Positions 3,144-27,498 of a DNA stretch of 64,000 nt are shown piece by piece. The notes under the pieces are model-generated. The model saw nothing but the letters and a program-made list of their open reading frames with translations. It had not been told where the DNA came from and made no database searches. This DNA comes from an uncultured delta proteobacterium (lineage in GTDB: Bacteria > Desulfobacterota > Binatia > UBA9968), in NCBI GenBank assembly GCA_963816145.1, contig CAWFJP010000010.1, positions 35,531 through 99,530 of the forward strand, in the 5' to 3' direction. Every line of letters starts with the position of its first letter. Position 1 is the first letter of the stretch. The position numbers and the translations under genes are program-made.

Positions 3144-3234
3144 GGAGAGATGGCCGAGTGGTCTAAGGCGCACGCCTGCTAAGCGTGTGTACCCCAAAAG
3201 GGTACCGAGGGTTCAAATCCCTCTCTCTCCGCCA
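3144..3234 (+). tRNA. tRNA-Ser(GCT)
   Basis: GGAGAGA acceptor; anticodon arm CACGC-CT-GCT-AA-GCGTG; long variable arm; GGTTCAAATCC; encoded CCA. Confidence 0.97.
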
Positions 3235-3307
3235 TTTTGCCTTGCAATAGAGGCGATCCCAGATTCAAATTTCCCGAGTTGGAATTTGTAATCAAGGACT
3301 TAAGAAG

Positions 3308-3384
3308 GCGCCCGTAGCTCAATTGGACAGAGCACCAGACTACGAATCTGGGGGTTGGGGGTTCAAATCCCTCCGGGCGCGCCA
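3308..3384 (+). tRNA. tRNA-Arg(ACG)
   Basis: GCGCCCG acceptor; CCAGA-CT-ACG-AA-TCTGG; T-loop GTTCAAATC; CCA. Confidence 0.97.
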
Positions 3385-5767: not shown

Positions 5768-6265
5768 ATGACTGCTAGCGACGAAGAATTCATGCGCCTA
5801 GCACTGGCTCAGGCAGAGGAAGCCGCGCGCCAGGACGAGGTGCCGGTAGGTGCGGTGGTCGTTTGCAGTGGAACGGTTGTCGGCACCGGCTACAATCAAC
5901 GCGAGTCCTGCCAAAATCCTTTGTGCCATGCCGAAATCGCCGCCATCGACGCGGCGGCGAAGCGGTTGGGGAAGTGGCGCCTGAGCGACTGTTCGATTTA
6001 TGTCACTCTCGAGCCCTGCATCATGTGTGTCGGAGCGATTTTACAAGCTCGTTTCGCCAAGTTGGTGTTCGGTTGCCTCGATGCCAAGGCCGGTGCGGTT
6101 GAATCTCTTTATCGTTTATGTGAGGATCGACGCCTTAATCATCAACTCCCAGCGGTCGGTGGTGTGCTGGCCCACGAAACCGGAGTGATTCTGGCGGAGT
6201 TTTTTACACGCCTGCGAGCGCGTAAGCGCGAGTGCAAAATTGGGGAGAGGTGGCCGAGCGGTTGA
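5768..6265 (+). CDS. tadA: tRNA adenosine(34) deaminase
   Basis: DEVPVGAV, HAE, TLEPCIMC, DAKAGA, RLNH motifs. Confidence 0.95.
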   Translation: MTASDEEFMRLALAQAEEAARQDEVPVGAVVVCSGTVVGTGYNQRESCQNPLCHAEIAAIDAAAKRLGKWRLSDCSIYVTLEPCIMCVGAILQARFAKLVFGCLDAKAGAVESLYRLCEDRRLNHQLPAVGGVLAHETGVILAEFFTRLRARKRECKIGERWPSG

Positions 6266-6333
6266 AGGCGCTTGACTCGAAATCAAGTGTACGGGGAACC
6301 GTACCGGGGGTTCAAATCCCTCCCTCTCCGCCA
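6244..6333 (+). tRNA. tRNA-Ser(CGA)
   Basis: CTTGA-CT-CGA-AA-TCAAG; variable arm GTACGG/CCGTAC; CCA; 5' end overlaps the last 22 nt of tadA. Confidence 0.96.
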
Positions 6334-7016: not shown

Positions 7017-8141
7017 GTGAGATTCCAGGGCGTCACCGCGCTCGCGGATTTGCCGACTTTGGCTTTGCGTATGACAGGATTAACCATGCATAATGCGAAG
7101 AATATGCATACTGCGAAGAAAACGCGCGGTTACCTCTATCGACTGACAACGATTGGGCTGTTGTTAGTGGCCTGGTTCTGTAGCACGCTATTCGTCCCTT
7201 CCCTCTTTGCCGCTGAAGCGAAGGACAAAGAACCGGAAGGCAAGGTGGTGTTCTACTCCACCATGGGCAATGAGCACTCGAAGATCTTTGCCAGTGCGTT
7301 TCGGCAACTTTACCCAAAGATTGAACCTGAGTTTTATTCGACAGGCTCAGCGCCATTGGCGGAGCGTGTTCTCAACGAAGCGCGCGGCGGCAGGCATTTA
7401 TGGGACCTGGTGATCACTACGCCGTTTTACACTCAACTTTTCATGAAGCGAGGTCTGCTCGCCGCCCACAATTCTCCGGAGCGGAAATTTTACCCAGATG
7501 GCTATAAGGACAGCAAAGGGCTGTGGACCTCGACTTATACTAACTACGCCGTCTTTGGCTACAACACCAAGCTGGTCCCGCAAGTTCGGGTCCCCAAGTC
7601 ACATGGGGATCTGCTCAAACCGGAATGGCGCGGCCAGGTCGGCATGGATGCTAGGCCCTACGAGTGGTTTGCCGCATTCGTGAATCACATCGGGGAAGAC
7701 AAAGGTTTGGCTTTCATGCGGGCGCTGGTGCAACAAGAACCGCAATTGCGCAACGGCCGTACTCTCGTCGGTCAACTGGTCGCTGCCGGGGAAAATGCCG
7801 GCTCGCTGACCGCTTTTTCACAGAATTTTGAGAACATGAAACTGAAAGGCGCGCCGGTGGATTGGGTGGCGCTCGATCCGGTGGTTGGTTATCTTCATCC
7901 GCTATCGCTTTCGGCAAAGGCGCCGCATCCGGTCGCCGGTAGGCTATTTATCGATTTCTTGTTGTCCGCCAAGGGCCAGGACATCATGCGCTCTTTGCAG
8001 CGCATCCCCGATCGCATCGACACTCTTCCCGACACGCGTCGGCTAGTGGAAGGTATCAAGCCAGTGTTTCCGTCGGCGGATGTGCTGGACAATTTGGATC
8101 GCTATATCAAACTTTTCGATACTATTTTTAAGCGGTCGTAG
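7017..8141 (+). CDS. ABC transporter substrate-binding protein (FbpA/AfuA-like); true start probably 20-30 codons downstream
   Basis: Signal-like segment; EGKVVFYST, GYNTKLV..PKS..DLLKPEWRG, APHPVAGRLF. Confidence 0.85.
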   Translation: MRFQGVTALADLPTLALRMTGLTMHNAKNMHTAKKTRGYLYRLTTIGLLLVAWFCSTLFVPSLFAAEAKDKEPEGKVVFYSTMGNEHSKIFASAFRQLYPKIEPEFYSTGSAPLAERVLNEARGGRHLWDLVITTPFYTQLFMKRGLLAAHNSPERKFYPDGYKDSKGLWTSTYTNYAVFGYNTKLVPQVRVPKSHGDLLKPEWRGQVGMDARPYEWFAAFVNHIGEDKGLAFMRALVQQEPQLRNGRTLVGQLVAAGENAGSLTAFSQNFENMKLKGAPVDWVALDPVVGYLHPLSLSAKAPHPVAGRLFIDFLLSAKGQDIMRSLQRIPDRIDTLPDTRRLVEGIKPVFPSADVLDNLDRYIKLFDTIFKRS

Positions 8142-8356
8142 CAGACGAAATGCGCCGATCGGCCACAAGTATCTATACCGCATGACCTTCTGATCGATTC
8201 AACCAAGTGCGTGATCTAGAAAAAAATATTCAAATGCCAGCGGAACAAAAATCCTTGGCCGCCGAGCGTAAATTTGGATTCGCGAACGCGAAAATTTTGC
8301 TCCCGAAGTGGTTGGACAAAAGCACTTTTACCTTGCGTTTATGAGCGCTACCGAAT

Positions 8357-8382
8357 CAAATCATCGGCGCCGATTGTCAAGT
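8357..8382. promoter_or_regulatory. Conserved 26-bp upstream box with palindrome ATCGGCGCCGAT (copy 1)
   Basis: CAAATCATCGGCGCCGATTGTCAAGT is identical at 17192-17217. Confidence 0.6.
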
Positions 8383-8449
8383 TTCGTTTACCGGAATTCT
8401 CTTTAAATTCCATCAATCTCCCAGAGCAAAAACCTCATACTTTCCAGCC

Positions 8450-8478
8450 TTGTCTTCAATGTTACGCAAGCGTATAAG
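8450..8478 (+). promoter_or_regulatory. Putative sigma70 promoter of the NRPS
   Basis: TTGTCT-N17-TATAAG; same arrangement (TTGTCC-N17-TATAAG) at 17288-17316. Confidence 0.6.
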
Positions 8479-8536
8479 CGCGATCATACATGGCTGGACG
8501 GCAGACAATGACTTAAATTCCCGTCGGCGAGGCATC

Positions 8537-11500
8537 ATGAAATTTCCAGCAGAACAAGACGCTATACGGGCCAACTGTTTTCAATCGTCGGGACCGTTCA
8601 TTGAGTTCTCGATCCAAGATGTCGAGATGTCGATTCCGGCGCGGTTCGAAAAGATCGTCAAACAGCATCCAGATACGATCTCGGTCAAGACGAGCGACCA
8701 TAGATGTCCGACATACGCGGAACTCAATCACGAGGCGAACCGGGTAGCTCACGCGATCTTGGCCCAACGCGGAAATACTGCCGAACCGATAGGAATCTTG
8801 TTTCAGAATAGCATTGAGCAAATCGCGGTTATGCTCGGAGTTCTGAAAGCAGGCAAATTTTTTGTTCTTTTGGATCCGTCATTTCCAAAAGCAAGGGTCG
8901 AAAGCGTATTGAAAGACTCGCATGCGGAGTTGGTCATCACAGACCGGCACAATTTACTCTTCGCTCATGAATTGGGATGCAAAGACGATCGGCTAATGGA
9001 ATTCGAATCCATCGATTCGAGGCTTTCGCGCCACAATCCGTGCCCGTCAGTCGCTTCTAGCGCGCTCGCGTATCTCGTCTATACTTCCGGTTCGACGGGA
9101 CAACCCAAAGGCGTGATGCAGAGTCACAGAAACGTTTTGCACAACATAATGCTGCGCACGAACGTGACCCCAGTCTACGTCGAAGACAGAATCGCGTCCT
9201 TGGCCGCTGGCACTGCGCACGCGGTTAGCAATACTTTCTTCGCACTCCTAAATGGCGCGGCGTTATTCCCTTTTGATGTCAAGAAAGAAGGAATCGCTCC
9301 TCTCGCCACATGGCTCCAGCGCGAAAGGATTACATTACTCTGGATCAGCTCACCGCTATTCCGCAGTTTCTGCGATGTCCTGACAGGAAAGGAGGACTTT
9401 TCAAATCTTCGCCTCCTCCGACTCTCAAGCGAGACAATTTACAAAGCTGATATTGATTTGTACAAACGCTACTTTCCATCTAACTGTCCACTATTTGTCG
9501 GGCTTGCTTCGAGCGAAACGGGACTACTTCGGTCCTATTTTGTCAATCACGAAACTATCATCGCAGGCACGGAAGTGCCGGTAGGCTACGCAGCCGAGGG
9601 CAAAGAAATCTCACTTTTAGACGATAATGGCAATTCGGTTGGTTACAACCAGGTCGGTGAGATCGTTGTCCGGAGTCGCTTTTTATCTCCTGGATACTGG
9701 CGACGCCCCGACCTTACCGATGCAAAGTTCCAACCTGACCCGCACGATCCTGAGAAGCGTCTATATTACACTGGCGATCTGGGGTTGATGCTTCCAGACG
9801 GATGTCTGATTCACAAAGGGCGCAAAGACTTGCGCGTCAAAATCCATGGCTATGGAGTCGAGATTTCAGAAGTGGAGCAAGCTCTACGTCGTCATGAATT
9901 CATTAAAGACGCGGTGGTTGTTGCCGGCCAGGATGAATCAGGTGAGAGCCGATTAATGGCTTACTATGTGTGCTCGCGCCCACCAGCGGTGACTCTCACA
10001 CAGCTACGAAGTTTTTTGACCAAGGATCTTCCTGATTACATGATCCCTTCGGTATTTGTGCCGCTTGATTCGATGCCACTGTTACCCACAGGAAAAGTTG
10101 ATCGGTACGCGCTTCCTGATCCTGGGAAGGAGAGGCCTGAGCTTGACACCCCCTATGTTGCGCCTCGGACAGGAATTGAACAAAAATTGCGGCGGATCTG
10201 GACGGAGGTTCTCGGTCTCGATCAAATAGGCGTTCATGACAACTTCTTTGAACTAGGCGGTCATTCGCTGGCAGCCACGCGGGTGGTGTCACAAGTGATC
10301 AAAACATTTCAGTTGGAGCTGCCGCTTCAATCTTTGTTCCAATCGCCCACGGTTGCCGAGATGGCGGCCATCATCCTTGCCGAATCGACATTGGAACAGC
10401 GCATTGAGTTCGAATCACGGCTATCGCGGAAGAGCGCACTTGCTACCATCACCGCCATTCCCCGACGAGATAGCTTCTCGCCTTGTCCGTTATCCTTCGG
10501 CCAAGAGCGCCTGTGGTTCCTTAATCAACTAGAGCCGGAGAGCCCGGTCTACAATGAGTCGAGCGCACTGCGGTTGATTGGTTTGCTCGATGTGAACGCT
10601 TTACAAGAAGCCTTCAATTGCGTAATTGCGCGCCACGAAGTTCTACGGACCACGATTGCGCTTGTTGACGGAAACCCCATGCAGCGGATCGCGGCTCACC
10701 GAACGATTGAGCTAGCGGCGATAGATTTAAGTTCGCATGTCTCCAAGGACCGCGATACCGAAGCGCGCCGGCTGGTCGATGAGGCGATCCGCAGCCCATT
10801 CGATCTATCAAACGACCTCATGCTGCGCACTTTACTACTCCGGCTCGACCACCAAGAGCACATCCTTCTTGTGGTCAAGCACCATGTTGCTTCGGACGGA
10901 TGGTCCTCGGAAATCTTCTGGCGCGAAGTTGCGACGTCGTATGCTGGGTTTAGCTCTGGACAGACCGCCAATTTACCCGAGCTGCAGATCCAATACGCAG
11001 ATTACGCGGCTTGGCAGCGGAATTGGTTGGCGGGAGAAGTTTCAGAGCGTCAGCTTTCATACTGGCGAAAGCAGCTTCAAGATATTCCAGCTGCAATCAA
11101 TCTACCCACCGACAGGTCTCGTCCGGCGGTGCAGAGTTATCGAGGAGCAAGAGAATCCATCGAGCTGTCCAAGGAACTAACCCAGAAGCTCAAAGCGCTC
11201 GGCCGTAGCCATGGCGTAACGCTGTACATGACGCTTTTGGCCGCGTTTCAAACCCTGCTCTTTCGCTACACGGGGCAGGACGACATCGCCGTGGGTTCTC
11301 CCATCGCCGGTCGAACCCGCGACGAGACCGAGGGACTGATCGGCTTTTTTGTCAACACGCTGGTATTGCGAACGGATTTGACGACCAACCCAACTTTTCG
11401 TGAATTGATGGAACGAGTGAGTGGCGTTTGTTTGAATGCATACTCCCACCAAGATTTGCCATTCGAGAAAATCGTCGAGGAGTTGCACCCGGATCGACAT

Positions 11501-14500
11501 CTTAATCAAAACCCGCTATTTCAGATCGCCTTCCAACTAAACACCAATACGAGGAAACCACTAAACCTCCCTGGTCTGCGCGTTGAGAACATCGAATTAG
11601 AACACCCCATGTCGAAATTTGATTTGAGCCTATCCATGACGGACAGGTCAGAATCGATAAGCGGGCGAATTATTTACAATGCAGATCTGTTTGACGCCGC
11701 CACGATCGAGCGCATGGTCGGTCATTTCCAAGTCTTGCTCGAAGGCATCGTCGCCAACCCGGAGCAGCCGATCAGTGGACTGCCTTTGCTCACCGAAGCC
11801 GAAACGCATCAACTCCTAGTCGAGTGGAACGACACCAAGACCGATTATTTCAACGACCAGTGCATTCACCAACTGTTTGAGACTCAGGCCGAGAAGACCC
11901 CGGACGCTATAGCCTTGGTTTGCGAAGACCAGAATTTGACCTATCGCGAACTAAATAGCCGCGCCAACCAGGTTGCCCATTACTTGCAAGTTCTTGGCGT
12001 CGGTCCCGAAGCGCCCGTCGGCATCTGCCTGGAACGTTCTATCGAGATGATCGTCGGCCTGCTCGCCATACTCAAGGCCGGCGGCGCCTATGTGCCCCTT
12101 GATCCGGCGTACCCGAAAGAGCGCTTAAAGTTCATACTGGACGATTCACAAGCGCGGATTGTTTTGACGCGCCAACCTTTCCTGGATGTTAAACAATGGC
12201 CAATGGCGGGTGCCGAGTGGTGCTCGTTGGTCAGCGATACCCGTATCGAGAGAGTTTGCTTGGACCGCGATTGGTGCGACATCGAGAAAGAGAGCGGAGA
12301 GAATCTCGAAAACGAAGCAACTGCTGACAGGCTCGCTTATGTGATTTATACCTCCGGGTCCACCGGCCGGCCTAAGGGAGTTGGTATCGAGCACCGCAAT
12401 GCAGTTTCGTTTTTGACCTGGGCGCATTCGGTTTTCACCCGCGACGAATTTTTAGGCGTGCTAGCCTCGACTTCGATTTGTTTTGACCTCTCCGTGTTCG
12501 AGATTTTTGCTCCGCTGACTTGCGGCGGAACGGTGATCCTGGCGGAAAATGCGCTGGCTTTACGGACTATTGCCAATGCATCGGCGGTGACATTGCTAAA
12601 CACCGTGCCGTCAGCCATCACCGAACTGCTGAGCTTGGGAGCCCTCCCCACATCGGTGCGAGTGATCAACCTGGCCGGGGAACCGTTACGCACAGAAGTA
12701 GTGCGGAGAATCTGCGCGTCAACACCGGCGGCGAAGATCTACGATCTTTACGGGCCGAGCGAATGCACGACGTATTCGACGTGGATGCGCCGCACCCCGG
12801 AGGGCCGGCAATCCATTGGTCGGCCGATCGCCAACACGCAAATTTACATACTTGGTGGCCATATGCAGCCGGTGCCGATCGGAGTAGTGGGCGAGATTTG
12901 CATTGGTGGTTCCGGGGTGGCGCGTGGTTATTTGAATCAGCCGAAGCTGACCCAAGAGAAGTTCATCGCCGATCCCTTCAGCATCGACCCCGGTGCCAGG
13001 CTCTACAAGACTGGCGATCTGGCCCGTTACTTGCCTGACGGCAACATCGAATTTCTCGGCCGCATCGACAATCAGGTCAAAATCCGCGGTTTCCGCATCG
13101 AGCTCGGCGAGATCGAATCCGTGTTGGGGCAACATTCCGGAGTGCGTCAGAGTGCGGTGATTGTGCGCGAGGATACCGTCGACGAGAGGCTGCTGGTGGC
13201 TTACGTTGTCGCAATTGACGATCCCGCACCTTCTATTAACGATCTACGAAGCTTCCTGAAAGCAAATCTGCCAGAATACATGATACCTTCCGCCTTCGTG
13301 TTTTTGGAATCTCTGCCGTTGACAACCAATGGCAAGGTAGATCGCAAGGCGCTTCCGGTTCCCGATCAGACTAGGCCGGAACTGGACGCGATCTTTATGT
13401 CACCGCGTACTCCCATGGAGGAGATGCTGGCAGAGATCTGGGCCGAAGTCCTAAAAGTAGAGGGGATTGGCATCCATGATAATTTCTTCGATCTCGGCGG
13501 CCATTCCCTCCTGGCAACTCAAGTGGTCTCACGAATGCGTCGAGCGGTGCAGGTGGAAATTCCCTTGCGCGCCTTGTTCGAATCGCCGACCGTGGTCGGC
13601 TTGGCTGCTCGTATTGAAGAAATCCATCAGAAGCAACATGGACTGCAGGCTCCCCCCTTGCTTGCGGTTTCGCGGGACAAAGACCTTCCTCTTTCTTTTG
13701 CCCAGCACCGGTTGTGGTTTTTGGATCAGCTGGAGCCCGGGAGTACGGTTTATAATGTTCCCATCGCTGTCCGTATTCGAGGACCGCTGGATGTCGCAGC
13801 GCTGGAGCGAAGCATCAACGAAATAATCGCACGGCACGAGATTTTGCGGACGACGTTTTCGACCGTAGAGGGAGAAGCGGTTCAGATTATCGCTCCGTCG
13901 TCGAGCCATTCACTGCCAGTGGTGGATCTAAGCGGGCAGGCAGAGAGTGCGCGTGCGGAACAAGCGCGACGGCTGGCGCGGGAGGAAGCCTGGCGGCCCT
14001 TTGACTTGGCTCGAGGACCGCTCGTGCGGGTTACTTTACTTCGGCTTGGCCAGGAAGATCACGTTTTGCTGTTGACTCTGCATCATATTGTCTCGGACGG
14101 CTGGTCGATGAAAGTGCTTTTCCGCGAATTATCGGCTCTCTACAATGCTTTTTCCCAGAATCACCCCTCGCCGTTGAGTCAACTGCCCATTCAGTATGCC
14201 GACTTTGGCGCATGGCAGCGGCAGTGGTTGCAGGGCGAGATTTTAGAGACCCAGCTTTCCTATTGGAAGAAACAGCTAAAGGATGTTGTACCGTTGCAAT
14301 TACCGACCGATCGGCCACGGCCGGCGCTACCGAGTTATCGAGGAGCACGAGAGTCCATCGAGCTCTCGAAGGAACTGACTCAGGAACTCAAAGCGCTCAG
14401 CCGTAGCCATGACGTAACGTTGTACATGACGCTTTTAGCTGCGTTTCAAACCCTGCTGTTTCGCTATACGGCGCAGGACGACATCGCGGTGGGGGCTCCC

Positions 14501-16915
14501 ATCGCCGGTCGAACCCACGATGAGACCGAGGGGCTGATCGGTTTTTTTGTCAACACCCTGGTGCTGCGGTCTGATCTTTCCGGCAATCCTCCGTTTCGAG
14601 AGTTACTAGGCCGGGTGCGAGAAGTTGCCCTGGGGGCCTACGCTCATCAGGATCTACCGTTTGAAAAACTGGTGGAGGAACTCCAACCGGAACGTAACCT
14701 CGGCCACTCGCCGCTATTTCAAGTAATGTTTGTGCTGCAGAATACGGTGGCTTCAGCTCCGGTACGAGAGTTTGCCGGTATAAAGCTTCGATTATTCGGA
14801 GTGGAGAGTGAGCCGGCGAAGTTTGACGTGATGCTAACGATGCGTGAGGGTGCGGGTGGGCTGAAAGGTTCGTTGCTCTATAACACGGACCTCTTCGACG
14901 AGGTCACCATTAAAAGGATGGTGGGCCATTTTCAGACCTTGCTGGAAGGTATCGTTGCCCATCCCGAACAACGCATAAGCGAATTATCCGTACTCACGGA
15001 TTCGGAGAGACACCAGCTGTTGGTCGAGTGGAACGACACCAAGGGCGAATATCCGAGAGACAAGTGCATACATCGACTGTTTGAAGATCAGGTCGAGCGC
15101 AGTCCAGACGCAATAGCGTTGGCGAATGCAGACCAGCAGCTAACTTACGGAGCGCTGAACAGACGGGCTAATCAATTAGCACATTACTTGCGAAAACAAG
15201 GAGTGGGCCCGGAAGTTCTGGTTGGCATCTGCATGGAGCGCTCTCTCGATCTCATCGTCGGACTGCTGGGAATTCTTAAAGCCGGTGGAGCCTACGTTCC
15301 CTTAGAGCCTGACTATCCCAAGGAACGACTGGCATTCATGCGAGAAGACGCCGAAGTTTCGCTTCTTTTGACGCAGGAAAAATTCCTGTTTGAAATGAGT
15401 CGGCAGCCAGTGGTGTGTCTGGATCGAGACAGGGAGAAAATTGCCCAACAGAGCGATCGCAATCCGGTGAGTCAAGTCCGCGCAGATAACTTGGCCTACG
15501 TGATCTATACGTCAGGATCTACGGGACGACCAAAAGGTGTTCAGATCGAGCACCAGTCGCTGGTGAATTGCTTGTGGTCTATCGGGAAACAGGTCGGACT
15601 GAACAAAAAGGATGTATTGCTCGCGGTCACGACGGTTTCCTTTGACATTGCTGCGTTGGAGCTTTATTTGCCGCTAATTGTTGGTGCAACGGTTGTCTTG
15701 GCCGGGCGCGATGATGCTCTCGATGGAAGACGAATCGTTGATCGATTAAAGAGCTCCGGTGCCACGGTGATGCAATCAACGCCGTCTTCTTGGAAACTTT
15801 TGGTGGATGCCGGATGGGAAGGCCATGACGACTTTAAGATTCTTTGTGGCGGCGAAGCTTTATCCGAGCGATTGGCTGATCAACTACTGGAGCGTGCGGC
15901 TTCGCTCTGGAATCTTTATGGTCCAACTGAAACGACGGTCTGGTCGACTACTGCAAGAGTCAAAGCGAGTAAACGACCGGTTCCAATCGGTCGGCCCATC
16001 GCGAATACGCGTCTCTTCATTCTGGATTCTCATTTGCACCCGGTTCCAATTGGAGTGCCGGGGGAGTTGTGTGTTGGCGGAGACGGCGTAGCACGGGGCT
16101 ATCGGAACCGCCCCGACTTGACCGCGGAGAGATTCATTCTAAATCCTTTTAGCGATCCGCCAGAAGCGCGGCTTTATCGCACCGGTGATCTCGCTCGATA
16201 CTTACCAGATGGTAACATTGAGTTTTATTGCCGAATCGACAATCAGGTGAAGATACGGGGCTATAGGATCGAACTCGGTGAGGTTGAATCCGTACTTGCT
16301 CAACACCCCGCCATCCAACAGGCAGTGGTTATTGCAAGAGAAGACACACCGGGGGGCCGTCGCCTAGTGGCCTACTGCGTCGCTACTGCGGACTCTAACC
16401 CTTTGCCTCACGATCTGCGCAGCTACTTAAAACACAAGCTCCCTGACTACATGATTCCGTCGACTTTCGTGCTCTTGGATTCACTGCCGCTCGCTCCCAA
16501 CGGCAAGCTCGACCGAAAAGCACTGATGGCTCCCGACGGCGGCCGACCCGAACTAGACGATGGCTTTGCCGCCCCAAGGACTCCTCTCGAGGAGACTCTC
16601 GCTAATATCTGGGCCAAGGCCCTCAGACTCGACAAGGTAGGAATCCACGACAACTTCTTCGATCTGGGCGGCCATTCCCTGTTGGCCACGCAAGTGATGT
16701 CACGAATGCAGAACGCGTTTTCCGTCGAGTTGCCGTTACGTCAAATGTTTGAATCGCCGACGGTGGCCGAATTGGCAATCATCATCACGGAGACCCAACA
16801 CAAGCGCGGAAGCGACACCCAGCAAGCGCAGATACTACGTGAGCTAGATTCGATGACGGAAGAAGACGCACAGGGGCATATGGATGAAATTGATTCGACA
16901 ATCACCAAAGAATAG
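8537..16915 (+). CDS. NRPS with architecture A(atypical)-T-C-A(Ala)-T-C-A(Gly)-T; no TE, R or E domain
   Basis: Three YTSGSTG.PKG, three GGHSL, two HHxxxDG; codes DLFNNALTYK and DILQLGLVWK read by eye; start set at MKFPAEQ by homology with 17377. Confidence 0.93.
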   Translation: MKFPAEQDAIRANCFQSSGPFIEFSIQDVEMSIPARFEKIVKQHPDTISVKTSDHRCPTYAELNHEANRVAHAILAQRGNTAEPIGILFQNSIEQIAVMLGVLKAGKFFVLLDPSFPKARVESVLKDSHAELVITDRHNLLFAHELGCKDDRLMEFESIDSRLSRHNPCPSVASSALAYLVYTSGSTGQPKGVMQSHRNVLHNIMLRTNVTPVYVEDRIASLAAGTAHAVSNTFFALLNGAALFPFDVKKEGIAPLATWLQRERITLLWISSPLFRSFCDVLTGKEDFSNLRLLRLSSETIYKADIDLYKRYFPSNCPLFVGLASSETGLLRSYFVNHETIIAGTEVPVGYAAEGKEISLLDDNGNSVGYNQVGEIVVRSRFLSPGYWRRPDLTDAKFQPDPHDPEKRLYYTGDLGLMLPDGCLIHKGRKDLRVKIHGYGVEISEVEQALRRHEFIKDAVVVAGQDESGESRLMAYYVCSRPPAVTLTQLRSFLTKDLPDYMIPSVFVPLDSMPLLPTGKVDRYALPDPGKERPELDTPYVAPRTGIEQKLRRIWTEVLGLDQIGVHDNFFELGGHSLAATRVVSQVIKTFQLELPLQSLFQSPTVAEMAAIILAESTLEQRIEFESRLSRKSALATITAIPRRDSFSPCPLSFGQERLWFLNQLEPESPVYNESSALRLIGLLDVNALQEAFNCVIARHEVLRTTIALVDGNPMQRIAAHRTIELAAIDLSSHVSKDRDTEARRLVDEAIRSPFDLSNDLMLRTLLLRLDHQEHILLVVKHHVASDGWSSEIFWREVATSYAGFSSGQTANLPELQIQYADYAAWQRNWLAGEVSERQLSYWRKQLQDIPAAINLPTDRSRPAVQSYRGARESIELSKELTQKLKALGRSHGVTLYMTLLAAFQTLLFRYTGQDDIAVGSPIAGRTRDETEGLIGFFVNTLVLRTDLTTNPTFRELMERVSGVCLNAYSHQDLPFEKIVEELHPDRHLNQNPLFQIAFQLNTNTRKPLNLPGLRVENIELEHPMSKFDLSLSMTDRSESISGRIIYNADLFDAATIERMVGHFQVLLEGIVANPEQPISGLPLLTEAETHQLLVEWNDTKTDYFNDQCIHQLFETQAEKTPDAIALVCEDQNLTYRELNSRANQVAHYLQVLGVGPEAPVGICLERSIEMIVGLLAILKAGGAYVPLDPAYPKERLKFILDDSQARIVLTRQPFLDVKQWPMAGAEWCSLVSDTRIERVCLDRDWCDIEKESGENLENEATADRLAYVIYTSGSTGRPKGVGIEHRNAVSFLTWAHSVFTRDEFLGVLASTSICFDLSVFEIFAPLTCGGTVILAENALALRTIANASAVTLLNTVPSAITELLSLGALPTSVRVINLAGEPLRTEVVRRICASTPAAKIYDLYGPSECTTYSTWMRRTPEGRQSIGRPIANTQIYILGGHMQPVPIGVVGEICIGGSGVARGYLNQPKLTQEKFIADPFSIDPGARLYKTGDLARYLPDGNIEFLGRIDNQVKIRGFRIELGEIESVLGQHSGVRQSAVIVREDTVDERLLVAYVVAIDDPAPSINDLRSFLKANLPEYMIPSAFVFLESLPLTTNGKVDRKALPVPDQTRPELDAIFMSPRTPMEEMLAEIWAEVLKVEGIGIHDNFFDLGGHSLLATQVVSRMRRAVQVEIPLRALFESPTVVGLAARIEEIHQKQHGLQAPPLLAVSRDKDLPLSFAQHRLWFLDQLEPGSTVYNVPIAVRIRGPLDVAALERSINEIIARHEILRTTFSTVEGEAVQIIAPSSSHSLPVVDLSGQAESARAEQARRLAREEAWRPFDLARGPLVRVTLLRLGQEDHVLLLTLHHIVSDGWSMKVLFRELSALYNAFSQNHPSPLSQLPIQYADFGAWQRQWLQGEILETQLSYWKKQLKDVVPLQLPTDRPRPALPSYRGARESIELSKELTQELKALSRSHDVTLYMTLLAAFQTLLFRYTAQDDIAVGAPIAGRTHDETEGLIGFFVNTLVLRSDLSGNPPFRELLGRVREVALGAYAHQDLPFEKLVEELQPERNLGHSPLFQVMFVLQNTVASAPVREFAGIKLRLFGVESEPAKFDVMLTMREGAGGLKGSLLYNTDLFDEVTIKRMVGHFQTLLEGIVAHPEQRISELSVLTDSERHQLLVEWNDTKGEYPRDKCIHRLFEDQVERSPDAIALANADQQLTYGALNRRANQLAHYLRKQGVGPEVLVGICMERSLDLIVGLLGILKAGGAYVPLEPDYPKERLAFMREDAEVSLLLTQEKFLFEMSRQPVVCLDRDREKIAQQSDRNPVSQVRADNLAYVIYTSGSTGRPKGVQIEHQSLVNCLWSIGKQVGLNKKDVLLAVTTVSFDIAALELYLPLIVGATVVLAGRDDALDGRRIVDRLKSSGATVMQSTPSSWKLLVDAGWEGHDDFKILCGGEALSERLADQLLERAASLWNLYGPTETTVWSTTARVKASKRPVPIGRPIANTRLFILDSHLHPVPIGVPGELCVGGDGVARGYRNRPDLTAERFILNPFSDPPEARLYRTGDLARYLPDGNIEFYCRIDNQVKIRGYRIELGEVESVLAQHPAIQQAVVIAREDTPGGRRLVAYCVATADSNPLPHDLRSYLKHKLPDYMIPSTFVLLDSLPLAPNGKLDRKALMAPDGGRPELDDGFAAPRTPLEETLANIWAKALRLDKVGIHDNFFDLGGHSLLATQVMSRMQNAFSVELPLRQMFESPTVAELAIIITETQHKRGSDTQQAQILRELDSMTEEDAQGHMDEIDSTITKE
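11134..11370 (+). repeat. Intragenic direct repeat in C domain 1 (partner 14332-14568)
   Basis: 237 bp; 73/79 identical amino acids (SYRGARESIEL...FFVNTLVLR). Confidence 0.85.
14332..14568 (+). repeat. Intragenic direct repeat in C domain 2 (partner 11134-11370)
   Basis: Same 237-bp block as the partner. Confidence 0.85.
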
Positions 16916-17191
16916 TTTGTCCTTCTTAGCATATTGTCCTTACAGGATCCTCCGAGAGACTCGACCGAAACCAGCGCCACAGCTTAAGAGGGTGAGATTG
17001 AACTAATTGATCTCCTACAATCGAAGTATTCATCGATTGAAACTTGCGAGATATGATTGGAGCGCCTCACAGTTCGATCCTGTGGCGAGGTTGAACTTTC
17101 GCACATCACAACTCGAGAAGGAAATCTTCGATCTAGAGCTGTCTAACCACTAGTTGCGTGTTTTCTTTATTTACCGAAATTTGAGTTCTGC

Positions 17192-17316
17192 CAAATCATC
17201 GGCGCCGATTGTCAAGTCTCATTTCTTACCGCAAGTATCTTTAAATTCCGTTAATGCAACAGAACAATAACTTCATGACTGTGAGCCTTGTCCTCAATTT
17301 GCCATAAGCGTATAAG
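17192..17316 (+). promoter_or_regulatory. Second copy of the palindromic box and sigma70-like promoter
   Basis: Identical 26-mer at 17192-17217; TTGTCC-N17-TATAAG at 17288-17316. Confidence 0.6.
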
Positions 17317-17376
17317 CACGACTATGATGCGGATTGACGATTTAAATTTCCGTGAGTGACCCCTAGGAGAAGCGGT

Positions 17377-19339
17377 ATGAATCTTCCGCCGGAACAAGAA
17401 GCTATACGAGCGAGATGTTTTCATCCATCGGGGACGTTCGTCGAGTTTCCCAAAGAAGATGTCGAGACTTCGATCCCTGAGCGGTTTGAAAAAGTCGTGC
17501 GACTGTACCATGACCGGATTGCTGTAAAAATACAGAACAGGATTCTAACGTATGATGAGTTGAACAAATCGGCGAACCGGGTGGCGCGCGTGATCCTCGA
17601 CAGGCTTGGTAGAGAGAACCGGCCCGTCGTTATCGTCTCTGAGCAGAACCTAACAGCAATCGTATTGTTGTTTGCAATCTGGAAAGCGGGAAAAATCGTG
17701 ATTGCGATAGAACCCTCCTTTCCCGCAGAGCAGATCGTCTCCACTATCAACGAGTCTCAAGCGGAGGCGATCTTAACAACCAATGACAATCTCGGACTTG
17801 CCCCGACTGTGGCCCATAGTGCGATGATCCCAATTATAAATTTCGACACGTTGACAATCGACGGTTCGGACGAAGATTTAGAATTACGGATCCCTGACGA
17901 GGCGCCGGCTGAAATTCGCTATAGTTCGGGTTCCACCGGAAAGCCTAAAGGAATCGTTCGCAGTCATCGCAGGCTTCTTAGTAGTGCAAGGTCTACGATC
18001 AACTTGGCTCACACATGCCCCGAGGATCGTCTGATCGCCCTGACGAGGCTCAGATTTGGCACTCGAGATCTACTTCGATGTTTGCTCAGTGGCGCAACTC
18101 TTTATCCATTCGATATCGAGAAAGACAGTATGGGCAATCTCGTCCGCCTGCTCAACGTAGAAAGAATAACCTATTATGAATCAGTGCCAACAATTTTTCG
18201 ATATCTGATCGGACAGTTGGACGGAAAGACAGCATTCCCATTTATGCGTCTCATTCAGCTTGGAGGGGACCTTTTATATAGGAGCGACATAACGTCGTAT
18301 AAGAAATATTTTCCGGACCACTGTATTTTAATGAACCGACTAAGTGCGGGCGAAACGGGAAATCTATGCGTATTTTTTATCGATAAGAATACAGAGATCG
18401 ACACTTCGATTGTTCCCGTCGGCTATCCGATTGAAGGTAAGCAATTATTCTTGCTGGATGAACTACGAAATAAAGTCGGAGTGAACCAAATCGGCGAGAT
18501 CGCTGTGGCCAGCCGTTATTTGTCCTCCGGGTATTGGAATAATTCCGACCTTACCAACGAAAAATTCTTTCTTAGCAATGCGGGCAGCGATGAGCGGTTA
18601 TATGTTTCGGGCGATCTTGGGCGGATGTTACCCGATAGTTGCTTGGTCTACGTCGGGCGGAAAGATGACCAGGTCAAGATCAGAGGCGCCAAACTAGAGA
18701 TCGGTGAAATTGAGGCGGTACTATCGGAACATCCGCAGATAAAGCAATCAGCGGTGGCAGCGTTCGAACGATCAAGCGGAGACAAATACTTGACCGCCTA
18801 TATAGTCCGTCGTTCTCATCGGGCACTGACGGTGACTGACATCAATGACTATCTAAGAAAGAAACTGCCCCGACTACATGATCCCATCGGCTTTCGTGTT
18901 TTTGGAATCGCTGCCTTTGACCAATGGGAAAGTGGACCGAAAGGCGTTGCCTAAACCGGATGATAAACGACCGGACCTTGGTACGCCGTTTGCTTTGCCG
19001 AGAAACGAGATTGAAACGAGTCTGATACGGATTTGGGAGGAAGTCCTTGATGTTCGTCCGATAGGGATCCACGACAAGTTTTTCGACCTAGGAGGCCATT
19101 CGCTGTCCGCGACCCGAGTTGTGTCCCGGGTTATCGAGCAGTTTCAGTTAGAAATACCGCTACAATCGCTGTTTCAGTCTCCGACTATTGCCGAAATGGC
19201 CGCGGTGATCGCCGAACATCAAGGAAAGATGTTAGACCAGAGCCAGTTGTCGGCTATCTTAGACGAATTAGGGTCGATGTCGGACGCTGAGGCTCAGCGG
19301 CTTGTGAGGGAAAGTAATTCGACCATGACCAAAAAGTAG
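17377..19339 (+). pseudogene. Stand-alone atypical A-T didomain NRPS-like protein with a +1 frameshift at C4 18868-18871 (real or sequencing error)
   Basis: AGGAG SD; MNLPPEQEAIRARCF; YSSGSTGKPKG; KKLP|DYMIPSAF restored by removing one C; GGHSL T domain in 18878-19339. Confidence 0.85.
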
Positions 19340-19622
19340 TTTGCCCCTCTTACCATTTGTCCTGGCATGATCCCTGCGCGCGGCGACAACAAGCTGCGCC
19401 GCGGATAAAGGCGGACCGGCATCGGTTCTCAGGCGATGTTCTCCATCCGTAGGCTGAGATTATTCTCCGTCAATTGAATCCTCGGGTCGTGGTACTGTCC
19501 GAGTTTTGTCCGAGAAATGAGGTGGTCTTGGTGTCACGACAGGCCTTCAACCGATCAAGCTTAGATTCAATTTACCGTTCATATCTGTCGATGGTAGCCA
19601 ATAAGAGGGGACGGTGTAGGAC

Positions 19623-19680
19623 CTCGAAATCAAGTGTACGGAGATCCGTACTGGGGGTTCAAATCCCTCCCTACCTGCCA
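19623..19680 (+). repeat. Degenerate 3' half of tRNA-Ser(CGA) (attR-like)
   Basis: CTCGAAATCAAGTGTACGGAGATCCGTACTGGGGGTTCAAATCCCTCCCTACCTGCCA; 6 mismatches versus 6276-6333. Confidence 0.85.
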
Positions 19681-20729
19681 AAAACTTCCGTCTTGTTATG
19701 AGCCATAGAATAAACCTGATGATGGTGTCTTGCCGGTGCAATCGTGTGTAACTGTCCGTCCATCGCTGCTCCAGGCGTTCGTCCAGTTTTTCAAGTAAAA
19801 CGCGATGATGATCGGATGGAGCGACGAGCCCAGGGCGATGCCATTGTTGTCGCACCAGCAGAGCCCGACCCGCACAGTCGATAAGAAGACCGAAGGCTAT
19901 CGCATTCGCTCAACCCATCCGCCCAAACGGTCGACTAGCAGGTCGTGATCGCTGGCGGCGTAATACGACAGCAAGGCGGGAGGCGGCTGGGGCTCAATGG
20001 CGGTGGGTTTGATCTTGGGACCATGCGCCCTCGTCATCGAATACGGCTTCTTTGAAGAGGGTCTCGTAAAACACTTCGATCATCACTCCCTGGCCGCGTA
20101 TTTTCGCCCCTCGCAGTGAATTCCAGATGTCTTCCCATGGTATGAGTTTCATCGGTCCTCGTTCGGCGGTGATCGATGGATGAAGGGAATTTCCGTTTAC
20201 AGATACCTGCGGTTGACGAGCGGATAGGTCGGTTGATTGCGCATTCGTGGGTCCAGACTTGGATTGTCGTTGCATCAATGCGTCCTCTCGTCCTTCGCTG
20301 TTGGTCCAAAGCAGTGCCGCGACGCGCGTATCCCTCGCAGGATTGCAAGTGCGAGATGAGCAACGACAATGCCAAGGGTCGGAGCACTTTAGATTTCCGA
20401 TACTTACGAGTAGTTGTGGGGAGACAACGCTATGATCAAGCGTAAGTTAATTTGACAGAAAATTATACGAATAATTACACTCGCTCTAGCGGATGAAAAA
20501 TCGCTCTGTTATTCAGCGGTTTAGTCTATGAACTCTTAGGTGTTTTCTGAGTCGGCCAGTTCGTAAGCAAAGTTTACAGCGTGCGCAAGATTTGTTAATC
20601 GATCCGGGGCAAACTCATTGCTCTTTCTTCTATCCCGGTTCCATCCATTGAATTCCGCTTTGTAGAAAACAACAAAACACTGTGGTAGCGTCGGTTTCCG
20701 CGTGAGTTGTACCACCGCGGTGGAAGTCG

Positions 20730-20820
<91 letters not shown>

Positions 20821-20959
20821 CGATTGGCGAGGCGTTGCTGCTGCAGCCGGTTAAATTCGATTCGATTATTTCGCGAGCGGGTAAGAAAACTTGAAACTGT
20901 GAAATTTTCGGCGTACTGTTTTAATCGAACGCTAAAGCAGTAGCTGTGTATAATCGCGC

Positions 20960-21088
20960 GGATGTCGATTGCTGATAGTTAGGTCCTGTGCAAGGCGGCC
21001 CCGTGAACCCCGTCAGGTCCGGAAGGAAGCAGCGGTAACGGCTCTCCCCTGTGCCACAGGGGCACCTGGCTGTCAGCAATGGGCATCC
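20960..21088 (+). ncRNA. ffs: Signal recognition particle RNA (small bacterial type)
   Basis: Helix 8 core GTCAGGTCCGGAAGGAAGCAGC; long closing stem GGATGTCGATTGCTGATAG/CTGTCAGCAATGGGCATCC; TATAAT at 20949-20954; upstream of dnaX. Confidence 0.93.
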
Positions 21089-23962: not shown

Positions 23963-24225
23963 CACATTCGTTCACCGTCGAGCAGAAAGTTAGTCGTTCT
24001 GCTCCGGCGTGCCTCCCAGCTTCACGGCTCCTCGACATTTCAACGACCGAAATTCCAGCGGCTCTGCTTTCTAATTTCTGCACTTGAGGGTTCCTGCGGT
24101 ATTCGCTATCTTAAGCGCCACGCTGGACGGCTTGCCACCGCTCCACTTGAGCACGGCGGCGAACAGCTTTACGGCGATTTTAACACTCAATTCGACAAAT
24201 CTAACTTCCAACCCGCGAGGTGATC

Positions 24226-25941
24226 ATGGCAACAGCGACGACCGATGGGAAGAATCAAGCATCCGGTCCAGTGATTTCTGGCGGCCACCTGGTGGCCAAA
24301 GCGCTCAAGAACGAGGGTGTCGAGGTGATCTGGACGCTGTGTGGCGGGCATATCATCGACATCTATGACGGCTGTCTCGACGAGGGCATCAAGATCATCG
24401 ATGTGCGCCACGAGCAAGTGGCGGCCCACGCGGCGGACGGCTACTCGCGCCAGAGCGGAAAGATCGGCTGCGTGGTGACCACGGCGGGGCCGGGAACCAC
24501 CAACGCGATGACCGGCATCGCCAACGCGTTTCGCGCCGAAAGTCCGCTGGTAATGATCGGCGGCCAGGGCGCGCTGTCGCAGCATAAGATGGGTTCGCTG
24601 CAAGACCTGCCTCACGTCGACATCATGTCGCCGATCACCAAATTTGCCGCCAGCGTGCCGCATACCGAGCGGGTCGCCGATATGGTGTCGATGGCGTTTC
24701 GCGAAGCGGTGAACGGCGCGCCGGGGCCAAGCTACCTGGAAATTCCCCGCGACATCCTCGACGCCAAGGTGCCGCTGGAGCGGGCGCGTATTCCCCAGGC
24801 CGGCGCCTATCGGGCGTCGACCAAATCGATCGGCGATCCCGCTGACATTGAAAAGCTCGCCGACATTCTCGTCAACTCGGAACGGCCTTGCGCGTTGTTC
24901 GGCACGCAGGTGTGGACCTCGCGCGGTCACGATGCCGCGGTCGAGCTGTGCCGCGCGCTGAACATTCCGGGTTACATGAACGGTTCGAGCCGCGGCATTT
25001 TCGCGCCGGGCGATCCGCATGGTTTTAACCGCACGCGCCGCGCCGCCTTCGACAAAGCGGATGTGATTCTGATCGTCGGTTGCCCGTTCGATTTTCGCTT
25101 GGGCTACGGCCGTCGGCTGCGCCCCGACGCGACTGTCGTGCAGATCGATCTCGACTACCGCAACGTCGGCAAAAACCGCGACATCTCGCTTGGCCTGGTG
25201 GGCGACTGCGGCGCGATTCTCAAAGCCGTCGAGCAGGCCGCAACTGGGCGCGCTGCTAAGGGCAAGGCCAAGCGCGGCGAATGGATGAAGGAACTGCGCG
25301 CCGGCGAGGCGAAGGCCTACGAAAAGCTTTTGCCGTCGTTCAAATCCGAATCGACGCCGATCAATCCATATCGCGTCGCCTATGAGATCAACGAATTTCT
25401 CACCGATAACACGGTCTACATCGGCGACGGCGGCGACGTGGTGACGATCACCGCGACGGCGGTGGAGCCGCGCAAGGCCGGCAACTGGATGGATCCAGGG
25501 CCACTGGGCACTTTGGGTGTTGGTACGTCCTTCTCGATGGCGACCAAGTTCGTCCATCCTGAGAAAGAAGTGTTGTGCTACTACGGCGACGGCTCCTTCG
25601 GCATGACCGCTTGGGATATGGAAACCGCGCAGCGCTTCAAGCTGCCTTACATGGCAGTGATCGGCAACAACTCGGCGATGAATCAAATTCGCTGCGGCCA
25701 GATCGGCAAATACGGTCCCGAGCGCGGTGGCGTGGGCAACAAGTTGGGCGATGTCGATTTTGAAAAATTTGCCGAGTGCTTCGGTGCCTGGGGCATCGCG
25801 GTGCGCGAGCCGAGCCAGATTCGCCCAGCGCTCGAAAAAGCGCGCGAACGCGTCGCCGGCGGCCAATGCGCCATCGTCAACATCTGGGTCGACATCAACG
25901 AATACGCCCCCGGCACCAAAGCGCAGACGATGTACAAGTAA
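24226..25941 (+). CDS. ThDP-dependent enzyme, oxalyl-CoA decarboxylase / 2-hydroxyacyl-CoA lyase-like
   Basis: VRHEQVAAHAADG, GPLGTLGVG, GDGSFG..NN ThDP motif; directly upstream of frc. Confidence 0.85.
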   Translation: MATATTDGKNQASGPVISGGHLVAKALKNEGVEVIWTLCGGHIIDIYDGCLDEGIKIIDVRHEQVAAHAADGYSRQSGKIGCVVTTAGPGTTNAMTGIANAFRAESPLVMIGGQGALSQHKMGSLQDLPHVDIMSPITKFAASVPHTERVADMVSMAFREAVNGAPGPSYLEIPRDILDAKVPLERARIPQAGAYRASTKSIGDPADIEKLADILVNSERPCALFGTQVWTSRGHDAAVELCRALNIPGYMNGSSRGIFAPGDPHGFNRTRRAAFDKADVILIVGCPFDFRLGYGRRLRPDATVVQIDLDYRNVGKNRDISLGLVGDCGAILKAVEQAATGRAAKGKAKRGEWMKELRAGEAKAYEKLLPSFKSESTPINPYRVAYEINEFLTDNTVYIGDGGDVVTITATAVEPRKAGNWMDPGPLGTLGVGTSFSMATKFVHPEKEVLCYYGDGSFGMTAWDMETAQRFKLPYMAVIGNNSAMNQIRCGQIGKYGPERGGVGNKLGDVDFEKFAECFGAWGIAVREPSQIRPALEKARERVAGGQCAIVNIWVDINEYAPGTKAQTMYK

Positions 25942-25945
25942 GGAA

Positions 25946-25977
25946 AATTGATAATGGAGAATGGAGAATTGATAATG
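25946..25977. repeat. Heptamer tandem repeat AATKGAK
   Basis: AATTGAT-AATGGAG-AATGGAG-AATTGAT-AATG, starting 4 nt after a stop codon; related copy at 36151-36180. Confidence 0.75.
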
Positions 25978-26071
25978 CTCGGAAATCATATCCGACATTC
26001 CTGCTCTTCGTGTCCTCCTTAGAAAATACATGTGCAAGTATGATCTGTGCGACGAATTGGCACGAGGTTTC

Positions 26072-26139
26072 CGTCATACCGGCGAAAGCCGGTATCCATC
26101 CCCTCCCACCCCTGGATGCCGGCCTGCGCCGGCATGACG
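26072..26139. repeat. REP-like palindrome pair (GTCAT family)
   Basis: CGTCATACCGGCGAAAGCCGGTATCCA...TGGATGCCGGCCTGCGCCGGCATGACG. Confidence 0.8.
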
Positions 26140-26256
26140 AATCTAGGGAAAAAACATGGGGTGGTGGGATGGTTGCGATTTCATACTCTGTGGACGAGTG
26201 TAAGCGCATGAACACTTCGTGGTGAGAACGAATTTTTATAAGGAGATAAGTTATTG

Positions 26257-27498
26257 ATGGCAAAGGCGCTCGATGGCATTCGCATTCTCGATATGACTCA
26301 TGTGCAGTCGGGGCCGACTTGCACGCAGATCCTCGCTTGGTTCGGCGCCGACGTCATCAAAGTCGAACTACCCGGGCGGGGCGACATTACGCGCGGACAG
26401 TTGCGCGATAAGCCCAACGTCGACAGTCTGTATTTCACCATGCTCAACTGCAACAAGCGCAGTATTACGATCAACACCAAGCATGAAAAAGGTAAAGAAG
26501 TGTTTCGCAGGTTGATCAAGTGCTGCGATGTTATGGTCGAGAACTTCGCGCCCGGCGCCCTGGATCGGCAAGGCTTTACTTGGGAAGCGATCCACGAGAT
26601 CAACCCGCGCTTGATTTATGCTTCGGTCAAAGGCTTCGGCCCCGGTCCCTACGAGGACTGCAAAGTCTATGAGAATATCGCCCAGTGCACCGGCGGCGCG
26701 GCGAGCACCACCGGATTCGACGACGGCCCGCCGCTCGTCACCGGCGCGCAGATCGGCGATTCGGGCACCGGCATTCATCTCGTCGCGGGAATTTTAGCTG
26801 CGCTGTTTCAGCGCGAGAAAAGCGGCCAAGGGCAGCGTGTCACCTGCGCCATGCAGGACACCGTGCTCAATTTGTGCCGGGTGAAATTGCGCGATCAGCA
26901 ACGCTTGGCCTCAGGGCCGCTGATGGAATATCCGCAGTACCCCAACGGGGTCTTCGGCGACGCCGTGCCGCGGGCGGGCAACGCTTCGGGCGGCGGCCAG
27001 CCGGGCTGGGCCGTGCGCACCAAAGGGGGCGGCCCCAACGATTATATTTACGTGATCATTCAGCCGCCGGGTTGGGAGCCTCTAATGAAGTTGTGCGGCC
27101 GGCTCGAGTTGATCACCGATCCGGAATGGGCGACGCCGGAAAAGCGTTTGCCCAAGCTCGACAAGTGCTTCGAGATCATCGAGCAGTGGGCGATGACGAT
27201 GGATAAACTGGAAGTGATGCGCCAGCTCAATCAATTCGACATCCCCTGCGGGCCGATTCTCGACATGGGCGAGATCGCCGACGAGCAGGCGCTACGCGAG
27301 ACCGGCACGGTGGTCGAAGTGGATCATCCCAAACGAGGTAAATTTTTGACCGTCGGCAATCCAATCAAGCTGTCGGACTCGCCGACGGAAGTGATAGCCT
27401 CGCCGCTGTTGGGCGAGCATACCGACGAGATTTTGAAATCCATTGTCGGCTGGAGCGACGCCGAGATCGCTGCGGCGCGCAAAGAAGGGGCGATTTAG
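26257..27498 (+). CDS. frc: Formyl-CoA transferase (family III CoA transferase)
   Basis: [51 protein letters not shown]. Confidence 0.93.

Follow-up and report, generated by a model that had tools for sequence, protein, structure and literature searches.

Passages of PMC6274189 describe SfmA and SfmB of saframycin biosynthesis as a line that builds an acyl-Ala-Gly chain and feeds it to SfmC. The nonribosomal peptide synthetase (NRPS) considered here resembles that line. It is encoded at positions 8537..16915, forward strand, of a 64,000-nucleotide stretch of DNA (the window) from an uncultured delta proteobacterium of the Binatia (GenBank assembly GCA_963816145.1, contig CAWFJP010000010.1, positions 35,531 to 99,530). 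Both have the order starter-T-C-A(Ala)-T-C-A(Gly)-T, where T, C and A are carrier, condensation and adenylation domains, both lack a release domain, and in both N-acyl-Ala-Gly is, or here would be, handed to another protein. They differ in that the Sfm starter is an acyl-coenzyme A (CoA) ligase/acyl carrier protein pair for a fatty chain, whereas here it is an NRPS-type A domain (A1) with a basic pocket, and in that no SfmC-like C-A-T-R partner exists here, no fused reductase (R) domain being found in the genome. A saframycin-type cluster was rejected, as the Ala-then-Gly order is shared but the acyl-CoA-ligase starter and the C-A-T-R partner are missing.

Other described systems share single traits with this locus. 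In anabaenopeptin biosynthesis, several starter proteins (AptA1/AptA2) feed one line and diversify position 1, according to passages of PMC8402340; there, two amino-acid starters belong to one cluster, whereas here 37 paralogues, A1 among them, are spread over about 25 loci and seven starter genes stand in one operon of a congener. Docking domains of the type-2-like/3HBa kind (PaxB/PaxC, CurG/CurH, Bam_5925/5924) have, like the NRPS and its putative partners, an acidic two-helix tail with a given hydrophobic spacing and a basic single-helix partner (passages of PMC9113145 and PMC11221535), but no sequence match to solved examples was obtained, and here a single type of tail is carried by 35 proteins, for which hardly any free partner exists in the genome. 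The A-T starters of the genome that resemble the oxalate-CoA ligases AAE3/Pcs60, three in number, have Arg299 and Ser301 in common with A1 and probably also the use of a small anionic acid. They form a separate clade (the outgroup of our tree), and A1 falls outside it, among the amino-acid A domains of NRPSs; on this basis, homology of A1 to the oxalate-CoA ligases was rejected. Finally, the keto-acid A domains (StsA, A-KR-T; KR, ketoreductase) and the single-module A-T-TE enzymes (TE, thioesterase) also contain A domains without Asp235, and many relatives of A1 are of the A-T-TE form, but the NRPS gene has neither KR nor TE and no sequence similarity to characterised members was found.

An Ala-Gly line alone would be ordinary; what deserves attention is the starter family, together with the missing release step. 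The gene is real and intact, its line works like SfmA plus SfmB, and its starters resemble the alternative starters of anabaenopeptin on a far larger scale. The reading that we favour, with a little less than even confidence, is that the NRPS is a working initiation line from which an acid-Ala-Gly chain passes through the tail to a helix-bearing protein. A1 would adenylate a small acid without alpha-amino group, most likely anionic, and load it onto T1; C1 and C2 would add Ala and then Gly, yielding X-Ala-Gly on T3 (X, the acid); and the acidic tail would present T3 to a separate protein with a basic helix. Genus-wide, this acceptor would typically be helix-C-A-T(-TE), and in the present genome (G000; 7.82 Mb in 31 contigs, 99.5% complete, 6.7% contamination) it would either be absent from the assembly or not be a C domain. 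A1 would be one member of a diversified starter library with a common tail. The architecture, the motifs, the intactness in several strains, the size of the family and the correlation between Asp and position are observed; the class of substrate, the docking and the acceptor itself are inferred. Of an earlier reading made from the letters of the DNA (the sequence-only reading), the non-amino-acid starter and the hand-off through the tail are retained, while a partner in this genome was not found.

Architecture of the NRPS gene

A single frame of 2792 aa spans 8537..16915, and Pfam recognizes in it three A, two C and three T domains and no other notable domain. In order, these are A1 (8537..10126), T1 (10157..10381, GGHS at residue 574), C1 (10487..11806), A2 (11867..13366), T2 with C2 (13397..15007), A3 (15107..16540) and T3 (16571..16786, GGHS at residue 2711). 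Between T1 and C1 lies a putative relic of an N-terminal basic docking helix (10385..10471), and an acidic two-helix tail, a putative C-terminal docking domain, closes the protein (16790..16912). The motif HHxxxDG is kept in both C domains (residues 782 and 1849), and GGHS in the three T domains.

The pocket codes were extracted by alignment with GrsA numbering, anchored on established motifs. They read DLFNNALTYK in A2, DILQLGLVWK in A3 and, over positions 235-322, AHSWRSG in A1, whose positions 330 and 331 shift by one residue between alignments. The pocket stretch of A2 resembles that of McyA (PDB 8jbr; 217 bits, identical pocket motifs), and for A3, AB3403 and DhbF score highest over a single stretch (177 bits each); we take McyA to be an Ala domain and the other two to be Gly domains. 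With the reference substrates so assumed, both pockets are identical or nearest to those of characterised domains, in agreement with the Ala and Gly assigned from the same codes in the sequence-only reading. A text search of the literature for the two codes found nothing.

Over residues 601-1200 (C1 with the beginning of A2), identity to another gene of G000, C3:597993, is about 70-92%, as against 21-68% in the flanks, which indicates a mosaic gene. C1 has 80% DNA identity to the first C of C3:597993, as in a recombination tract, and the core A domain is Thr-coded there and Ala-coded here. Similar mosaicism is reported for other NRPS families in passages of PMC8097286. An orthologue of the C-Ala-C-Gly stretch was not found in a DNA search of 31 genus genomes, where the best long matches reached about 70%.

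Concerning the surroundings, the Pfam scan found no TE, R, MbtH or phosphopantetheinyl transferase (PPTase) among the 55 open reading frames of the window that it covered, and the nearest major facilitator superfamily gene lies about 19 kb downstream (36279), so that the empty neighbourhood described earlier, without an exporter nearby, was confirmed.

The starter domain A1 and its family

A1 carries Ala at position 235. It has GTAHAV instead of FDxS and VGLASSETG at motif A5, and it retains the A3 loop and the A10 Lys, all as previously noticed; its P-loop, E327 and A7 Asp are also intact. Considered as an NRPS A domain, it has the A3 motif, A5 Glu, A7 Asp, A8 Arg and A10 Lys that are expected; considered as an alpha-amino-acid A domain, it departs at position 235. 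Its pocket motifs are the same in the six other cluster members that cover them. The predicted model (pLDDT 87.7) is consistent with the NRPS-type ANL fold, with ApnA, Txo2, LgrA and PheA as the top Foldseek matches at 28-29% identity and no solved relative above 29% among the matches listed. Searches of NCBIfam, PDB and the ESM Atlas gave generic A-T matches only, LgrA and Tyc-type modules being the best solved chains, and a metagenome scan gave no close relative of A1 (best 61%).

Domains of the A1 type, here called X, number 37 in G000, with 37 different seven-position codes. Twenty-nine are protein-initial, four follow a C domain, one follows a T domain and three follow a domain that, from its motifs, we presume to be PaaK-like. 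Together with 150 outside homologues (a sample of 187 biased towards the subclade of A1), they form a monophyletic clade with support 1.0 and 133 distinct codes. The catalytic residues are nearly invariant across the 187 domains (E327 in 187, A7 Asp in 186, K517 in 180), and G302 and G324 are replaced in most of them. In the tree, the ancestry of the clade lies in elongation domains that bear Asp and the code DAMHVGG and occur in cyanobacteria, among others; a substrate for this ancestral code was not found in the literature. X orthologues from other species have identical codes, and their ratios of nonsynonymous to synonymous substitution (dN/dS) are 0.14-0.22 in five of seven pairs, with the other two saturated; the orthologues are under purifying selection.

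Of the genomes searched, 17 of 24 from the same genus and none of 16 from other families gave X matches at E 1e-100, the candidates scored being limited to 35 in each. Ca. Binatia accounts for seven of the eight top homologues that bear an organism name, and members at 40-45% identity occur in records of Chloroflexota, Methylomirabilota and Calothrix among the listed matches of a contig scan, most of which were generic A domains. Stand-alone X-T-TE enzymes are common: this form makes up 11 of the 120 top homologues, and among 46 N-terminal X genes of metagenome loci, 23 have a fused TE (L170, L172, L193, L207 and others). The code GASHKGG recurs in ten metagenome X domains. Some X or NRPS genes of G000 are fragmented, e.g. 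C30:271302-273531 and C4:454747. A literature search, conducted largely outside the subscription literature and so not establishing absence from print, found no paper on the X family, and the consulted passages of PMC8692599 report three Binatota clusters with no mention of it. The 133 codes of the 187 domains, on fixed catalytic residues, offer a natural panel for the recognition of acids without alpha-amino group, where current codes predict nothing; the stand-alone X-T proteins, of about 650 aa, are directly assayable. The family suggests that a lineage common in soils and wetlands has chemistry still to be explored.

Passages of PMC11355689 state that Asp235 binds the alpha-amino group, and its occurrence among the X domains follows their position. 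A metagenome set of 72 X domains was taken from loci L169-L241, excluding six weaker loci and any alignment shorter than 380 aa; the label X stands for a best BLAST hit to A1, and loci are not independent of one another. Asp235 is present in 23 of the 25 domains of this set that follow a C domain and absent from 43 of the 47 that do not. In G000, it is present in three of four after C and in none of 33 elsewhere. Because Asp235 is kept after C and lost elsewhere, these alignments support an acid without alpha-amino group as the starter of A1. That A1 might instead activate an ordinary alpha-amino acid, in a pocket that dispenses with Asp235, would fit the descent of the clade from Asp-bearing domains and its conserved NRPS A fold; it is nevertheless very improbable in view of the function of Asp235, of its retention where an amine is needed and loss where it is not, and of the replacement of G302 and G324 in most members.

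As to the kind of acid, Arg or Lys occurs in 29 of the 34 Asp-less pockets of G000 versus 6 of 30 canonical ones. A basic pocket argues for an anionic acid over a fatty or aryl one, and the substrate of A1 is probably a small anionic acid, dicarboxylic or similar. The acyl, aryl or keto-acid starter proposed in the sequence-only reading is kept in one respect, that it is not an amino acid, since Asp235 tracks position (23/25 versus 4/47). Fatty and aryl acids fit the basic pocket less well, and the A-KR route to a keto acid is not present because there is no KR; the same lack sets the NRPS apart from keto-acid depsipeptide synthetases. Separately, three NRPSs of G000 start with an oxalate-CoA-ligase-like A-T (L001:6749, L013:8301-13490 and L012:7233; 385 bits to PDB 5ie0), which suggests oxalyl-capped peptides.

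The acidic tail, its candidate partners and product release

The same acidic tail ends 35 proteins of G000 and 92 of the 120 top homologues. In 29 of the 35, the window tail included, hydrophobic residues follow an acidic residue with the spacing i, i+3, i+8, i+12, as compared with 25% of shuffles. This is the spacing of type-2 and PaxB C-terminal docking domains (type-2/3HBa) in passages of PMC11221535, and passages of PMC9113145 give a single basic helix as the partner of such tails. In congeners, at the loci listed, the gene right after a tail gene is a C gene that opens with a basic helix (L149, L153, L154). The G043 operon (L153/L154) contains seven stand-alone X-T-tail genes and ends in helix-C-A-T-TE, and G014 has the same junction (L149); a TE is present in 11 of the 46 longer relatives of the helix-C start. 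This spacing, together with the congener gene order, supports at the family level that the tail is a helical docking domain for hand-off, the function first proposed for it from the sequence of the window. A role of the tail as a PEARL scaffold was considered and dropped. The G043 operon (G043:C15:1084741-1118561) also holds an X-T-C-A-T gene and an oxalate-ligase-like A-T, and is the clearest combinatorial starter array seen.

A wider proposal can be made, that this lineage has a combinatorial starter library spread over its genome. One amino-acid A domain would have lost Asp235 and given rise to dozens of pocket variants for different anionic acids, all connected by one shared docking helix to few acceptors (among them the C1-fused helix of this NRPS and non-C enzymes such as glycosyltransferases), with TE-free release. 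We hold this to be conceivable though doubtful. If it is true that one tail feeds many starters to one acceptor, it would be a ready-made route to N-terminal peptide diversification.

The helix between T1 and C1 was aligned with nine other helices. It is 22-34% identical to the free-standing ones and 62% to that of C3:597993, in which such a relic is also present between T1 and C1, and it has lost its first hydrophobic position. It suggests that an X-T gene was fused to a helix-C gene. A helix profile made from Binatia recovers three sites in G000, all of them in its training set. An independent profile of docking helices from other bacteria missed the internal helix of the window and scored that of C3:597993 at 4.7 bits; its top match genome-wide was the C-terminus of a family 4 glycosyltransferase (GT4) beside a tail-ended NRPS (independent E-value 0.0025). 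A second GT4 of G000 and two of congeners end in a similar helix and adjoin tail-ended FkbH-T genes. The partners of the tail may thus not be limited to C domains; the four GT4 genes are at L012:13951-15300 and L017:5474-6775 (G000) and at L249 and L250 (congeners). These observations bear on a different destination of the tail, which would recruit a non-C enzyme, for instance a GT4 that processes the chain on its carrier, or the helix before C1, so that C1 receives its primer from X-T proteins in trans, or several NRPS copies form a head-to-tail chain. Passages of PMC9113145 predict this docking class on domains besides C, which agrees with it. On the other hand, no such GT4 is present in the window, a glycosyltransferase is not an obvious thioester cleaver, and the altered internal helix escaped the independent profile; we consider this destination unlikely. 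A predicted complex between the tail of the NRPS and its internal helix scored 0.01 (mark 0.32), with controls not folded, which is no evidence either way.

Returning to the initiation line with a separate helix-bearing acceptor, several results weigh against it. Some concern A1 and A3. The arginine at position 299 is presumed by us to act in oxalate binding, a role not stated in the passages of PMC8905533; Asp235 is missing after a C domain in one X of G000 (C3:20728) and in 2 of the 25 metagenome cases; and both A1 and A3 have unusual A8 residues. In A1, KIRG has become KIHG, with the second Arg replaced by His as in only 2 of the 187 X domains, and A3 has CRxD in place of GRxD (three of three alleles covering the site). 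Strain-private errors were rejected for both, as they are fixed across alleles. The tail and helix profiles (38-45 residues) had no significant match to solved docking domains in the PDB. The remaining points concern the acceptor. Only one of the 35 tails precedes a C-starting gene, the others being followed by another X (6), by other genes (16) or by none within 700 nt (12). The sole free basic-helix C gene of G000 retains its helix and a T, but the greater part of C and A is missing in each of the 13 alleles, and it has no longer relative above 53% identity. It is a 272-aa helix-(C fragment)-(A fragment)-T frame, open and of equal length in the 13 alleles (L007:12490-13308, G000 C3:608460), either a relic or an adaptor. 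No NRPS-type TE was found in G000, where three weak matches lie in frames of 279-319 aa (best independent E-value 0.25 in a further search), nor a fused R, the 16 PF07993 matches all lying in frames of 286-375 aa. By comparison, a TE lies in a frame of at least 750 aa in 16 of 23 congeners. The lack of TE and R, together with the deleted sole acceptor, leaves release unexplained, and the dispersed line with a partner elsewhere in the genome, as proposed in the sequence-only reading, was not found. Thirty-five tails and no thioesterase in one genome pose a clear question of product release.

In favour of a working line, G000 has two PPTases (one Sfp-sized) and one MbtH. Its only fused release candidates belong to other lines. 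In one of them (L018:6968-9895, G000 C4:500959), an A-T is followed by a 360-aa domain without Pfam match, which we take to be ATP-grasp-like. The other has the motifs TTG and DDSGP, which passages of bioRxiv 10.1101/2024.10.28.620694 assign to a terminal amidation domain.

The lack of TE and R at 99.5% completeness and the deleted acceptor raise the question of decay: the terminal helix-C-A-T-TE acceptor would have been lost, and the line and most X-T genes would release nothing and be in early decay. The fragmented X and NRPS genes and the fixed odd A8 residues could be understood in the same way, as could the state of the NRPS cluster, in which four of the seven members other than the window gene are shorter, three of these four with out-of-frame ends (errors or mutations). 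Nevertheless, three of the eight members have the full 2792 aa, and the full-length alleles differ by only 14-35 residues without any stop, five of the six SNPs (single-nucleotide polymorphisms) listed for the gene are synonymous, the sole listed indel is in frame, and the dN/dS of X orthologues, though reflecting an older history, is about 0.2. The short members may be errors too, as is a frameshift in the sister gene. This sister, a stand-alone X-T-tail gene (17377..19339, forward strand) with the pocket RFGTRD and without Asp235, as noted from the sequence, has an extra base at 18868, within a C run. The base is missing from the contigs of four of four independent runs, and four of five cluster members have 653 aa; the frameshift is therefore an assembly error, the gene is intact, and the sister as a pseudogene was rejected. 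The sequence-only reading had named the absence of any partner or release enzyme as the mark of a relic locus; no release partner was found, but the gene is intact across strains. Considering both sides, decay seems rather unlikely.

Another route to release that needs no enzyme, and so fits the absence of TE and R, is that X carries its own nucleophile (a beta- or omega-amino or hydroxy acid) and the chain leaves T3 by uncatalysed cyclisation or hydrolysis, the tail being a passenger of the cassette. The three Asp-less X domains after C suggest that a nucleophile may be present on some substrates of such domains, and the tail and the DNA downstream of it travel with the cassette. However, most Asp-less X domains do not follow C, the fused TE in half of the N-terminal metagenome X genes implies that the family normally uses catalysed release, and the pocket of A1 has no acidic residue for amine binding, which makes this route distinctly unlikely.

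The insertion at tRNA-Ser

The locus was inserted at a tRNA-Ser gene. The NRPS gene, the sister and a solute-binding protein gene (7017..8141, forward strand, Pfam) lie between tRNA-Ser(cga) (6244..6333, forward strand), the left end, and a 55-nt att-like repeat, 89% identical to the 3' half of that tRNA (19628..19682, forward strand), the right end. The tadA-dnaX gap is 14.9 kb here, up to 3 kb in six of the nine congeners with both genes on one contig and 7.7-20.7 kb in the other three; a direct repeat of a tRNA 3' end and an empty site in relatives are thus both present, as in tRNA-targeted genomic islands. No integrase of its own was found for the island, the 11 PF00589 matches of the genome all lying outside contig C10. 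X loci are weakly enriched near tRNA genes (6 of 25 versus 2.5 expected, P 0.028). The MFS gene mentioned above lies beyond the insertion, and tRNA-Ser(gct), tRNA-Arg(acg), tRNA-Ser(gga) and a signal recognition particle RNA flank the locus (3144-3384 and 20730-21074).

A conserved non-coding leader (8356..8536, forward strand) precedes the NRPS gene. The sister has it too (17192-17376), as do paralogues on contigs C13, C14 and C29, at about 71-77% identity; a promoter scan found no sigma-70-type promoter in it. Dispersed paralogues share this leader and the trailer (16915-16990) in conserved form, as though the gene travelled as a cassette. Around 19352-19462, contigs of other runs join different T-ending or X-starting sequence, which hints at a strain-variable number of cassettes. 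At least 20 sequencing runs, from soil and wetland, hold half or more of the words of the stretch; no RNA run is among the runs listed with it, which says nothing on expression.

About 5.5 kb upstream of the window are in tandem duplicate (G000 C10:3802-14085), which is either real or an assembly artefact. At 24220-27498, 5 kb outside the insertion, the window contains a thiamine pyrophosphate enzyme and a family III CoA-transferase, a pair that we take to resemble oxalyl-CoA decarboxylase and formyl-CoA transferase. One tripartite-transporter-like solute-binding protein of G000 has about 100 paralogues.

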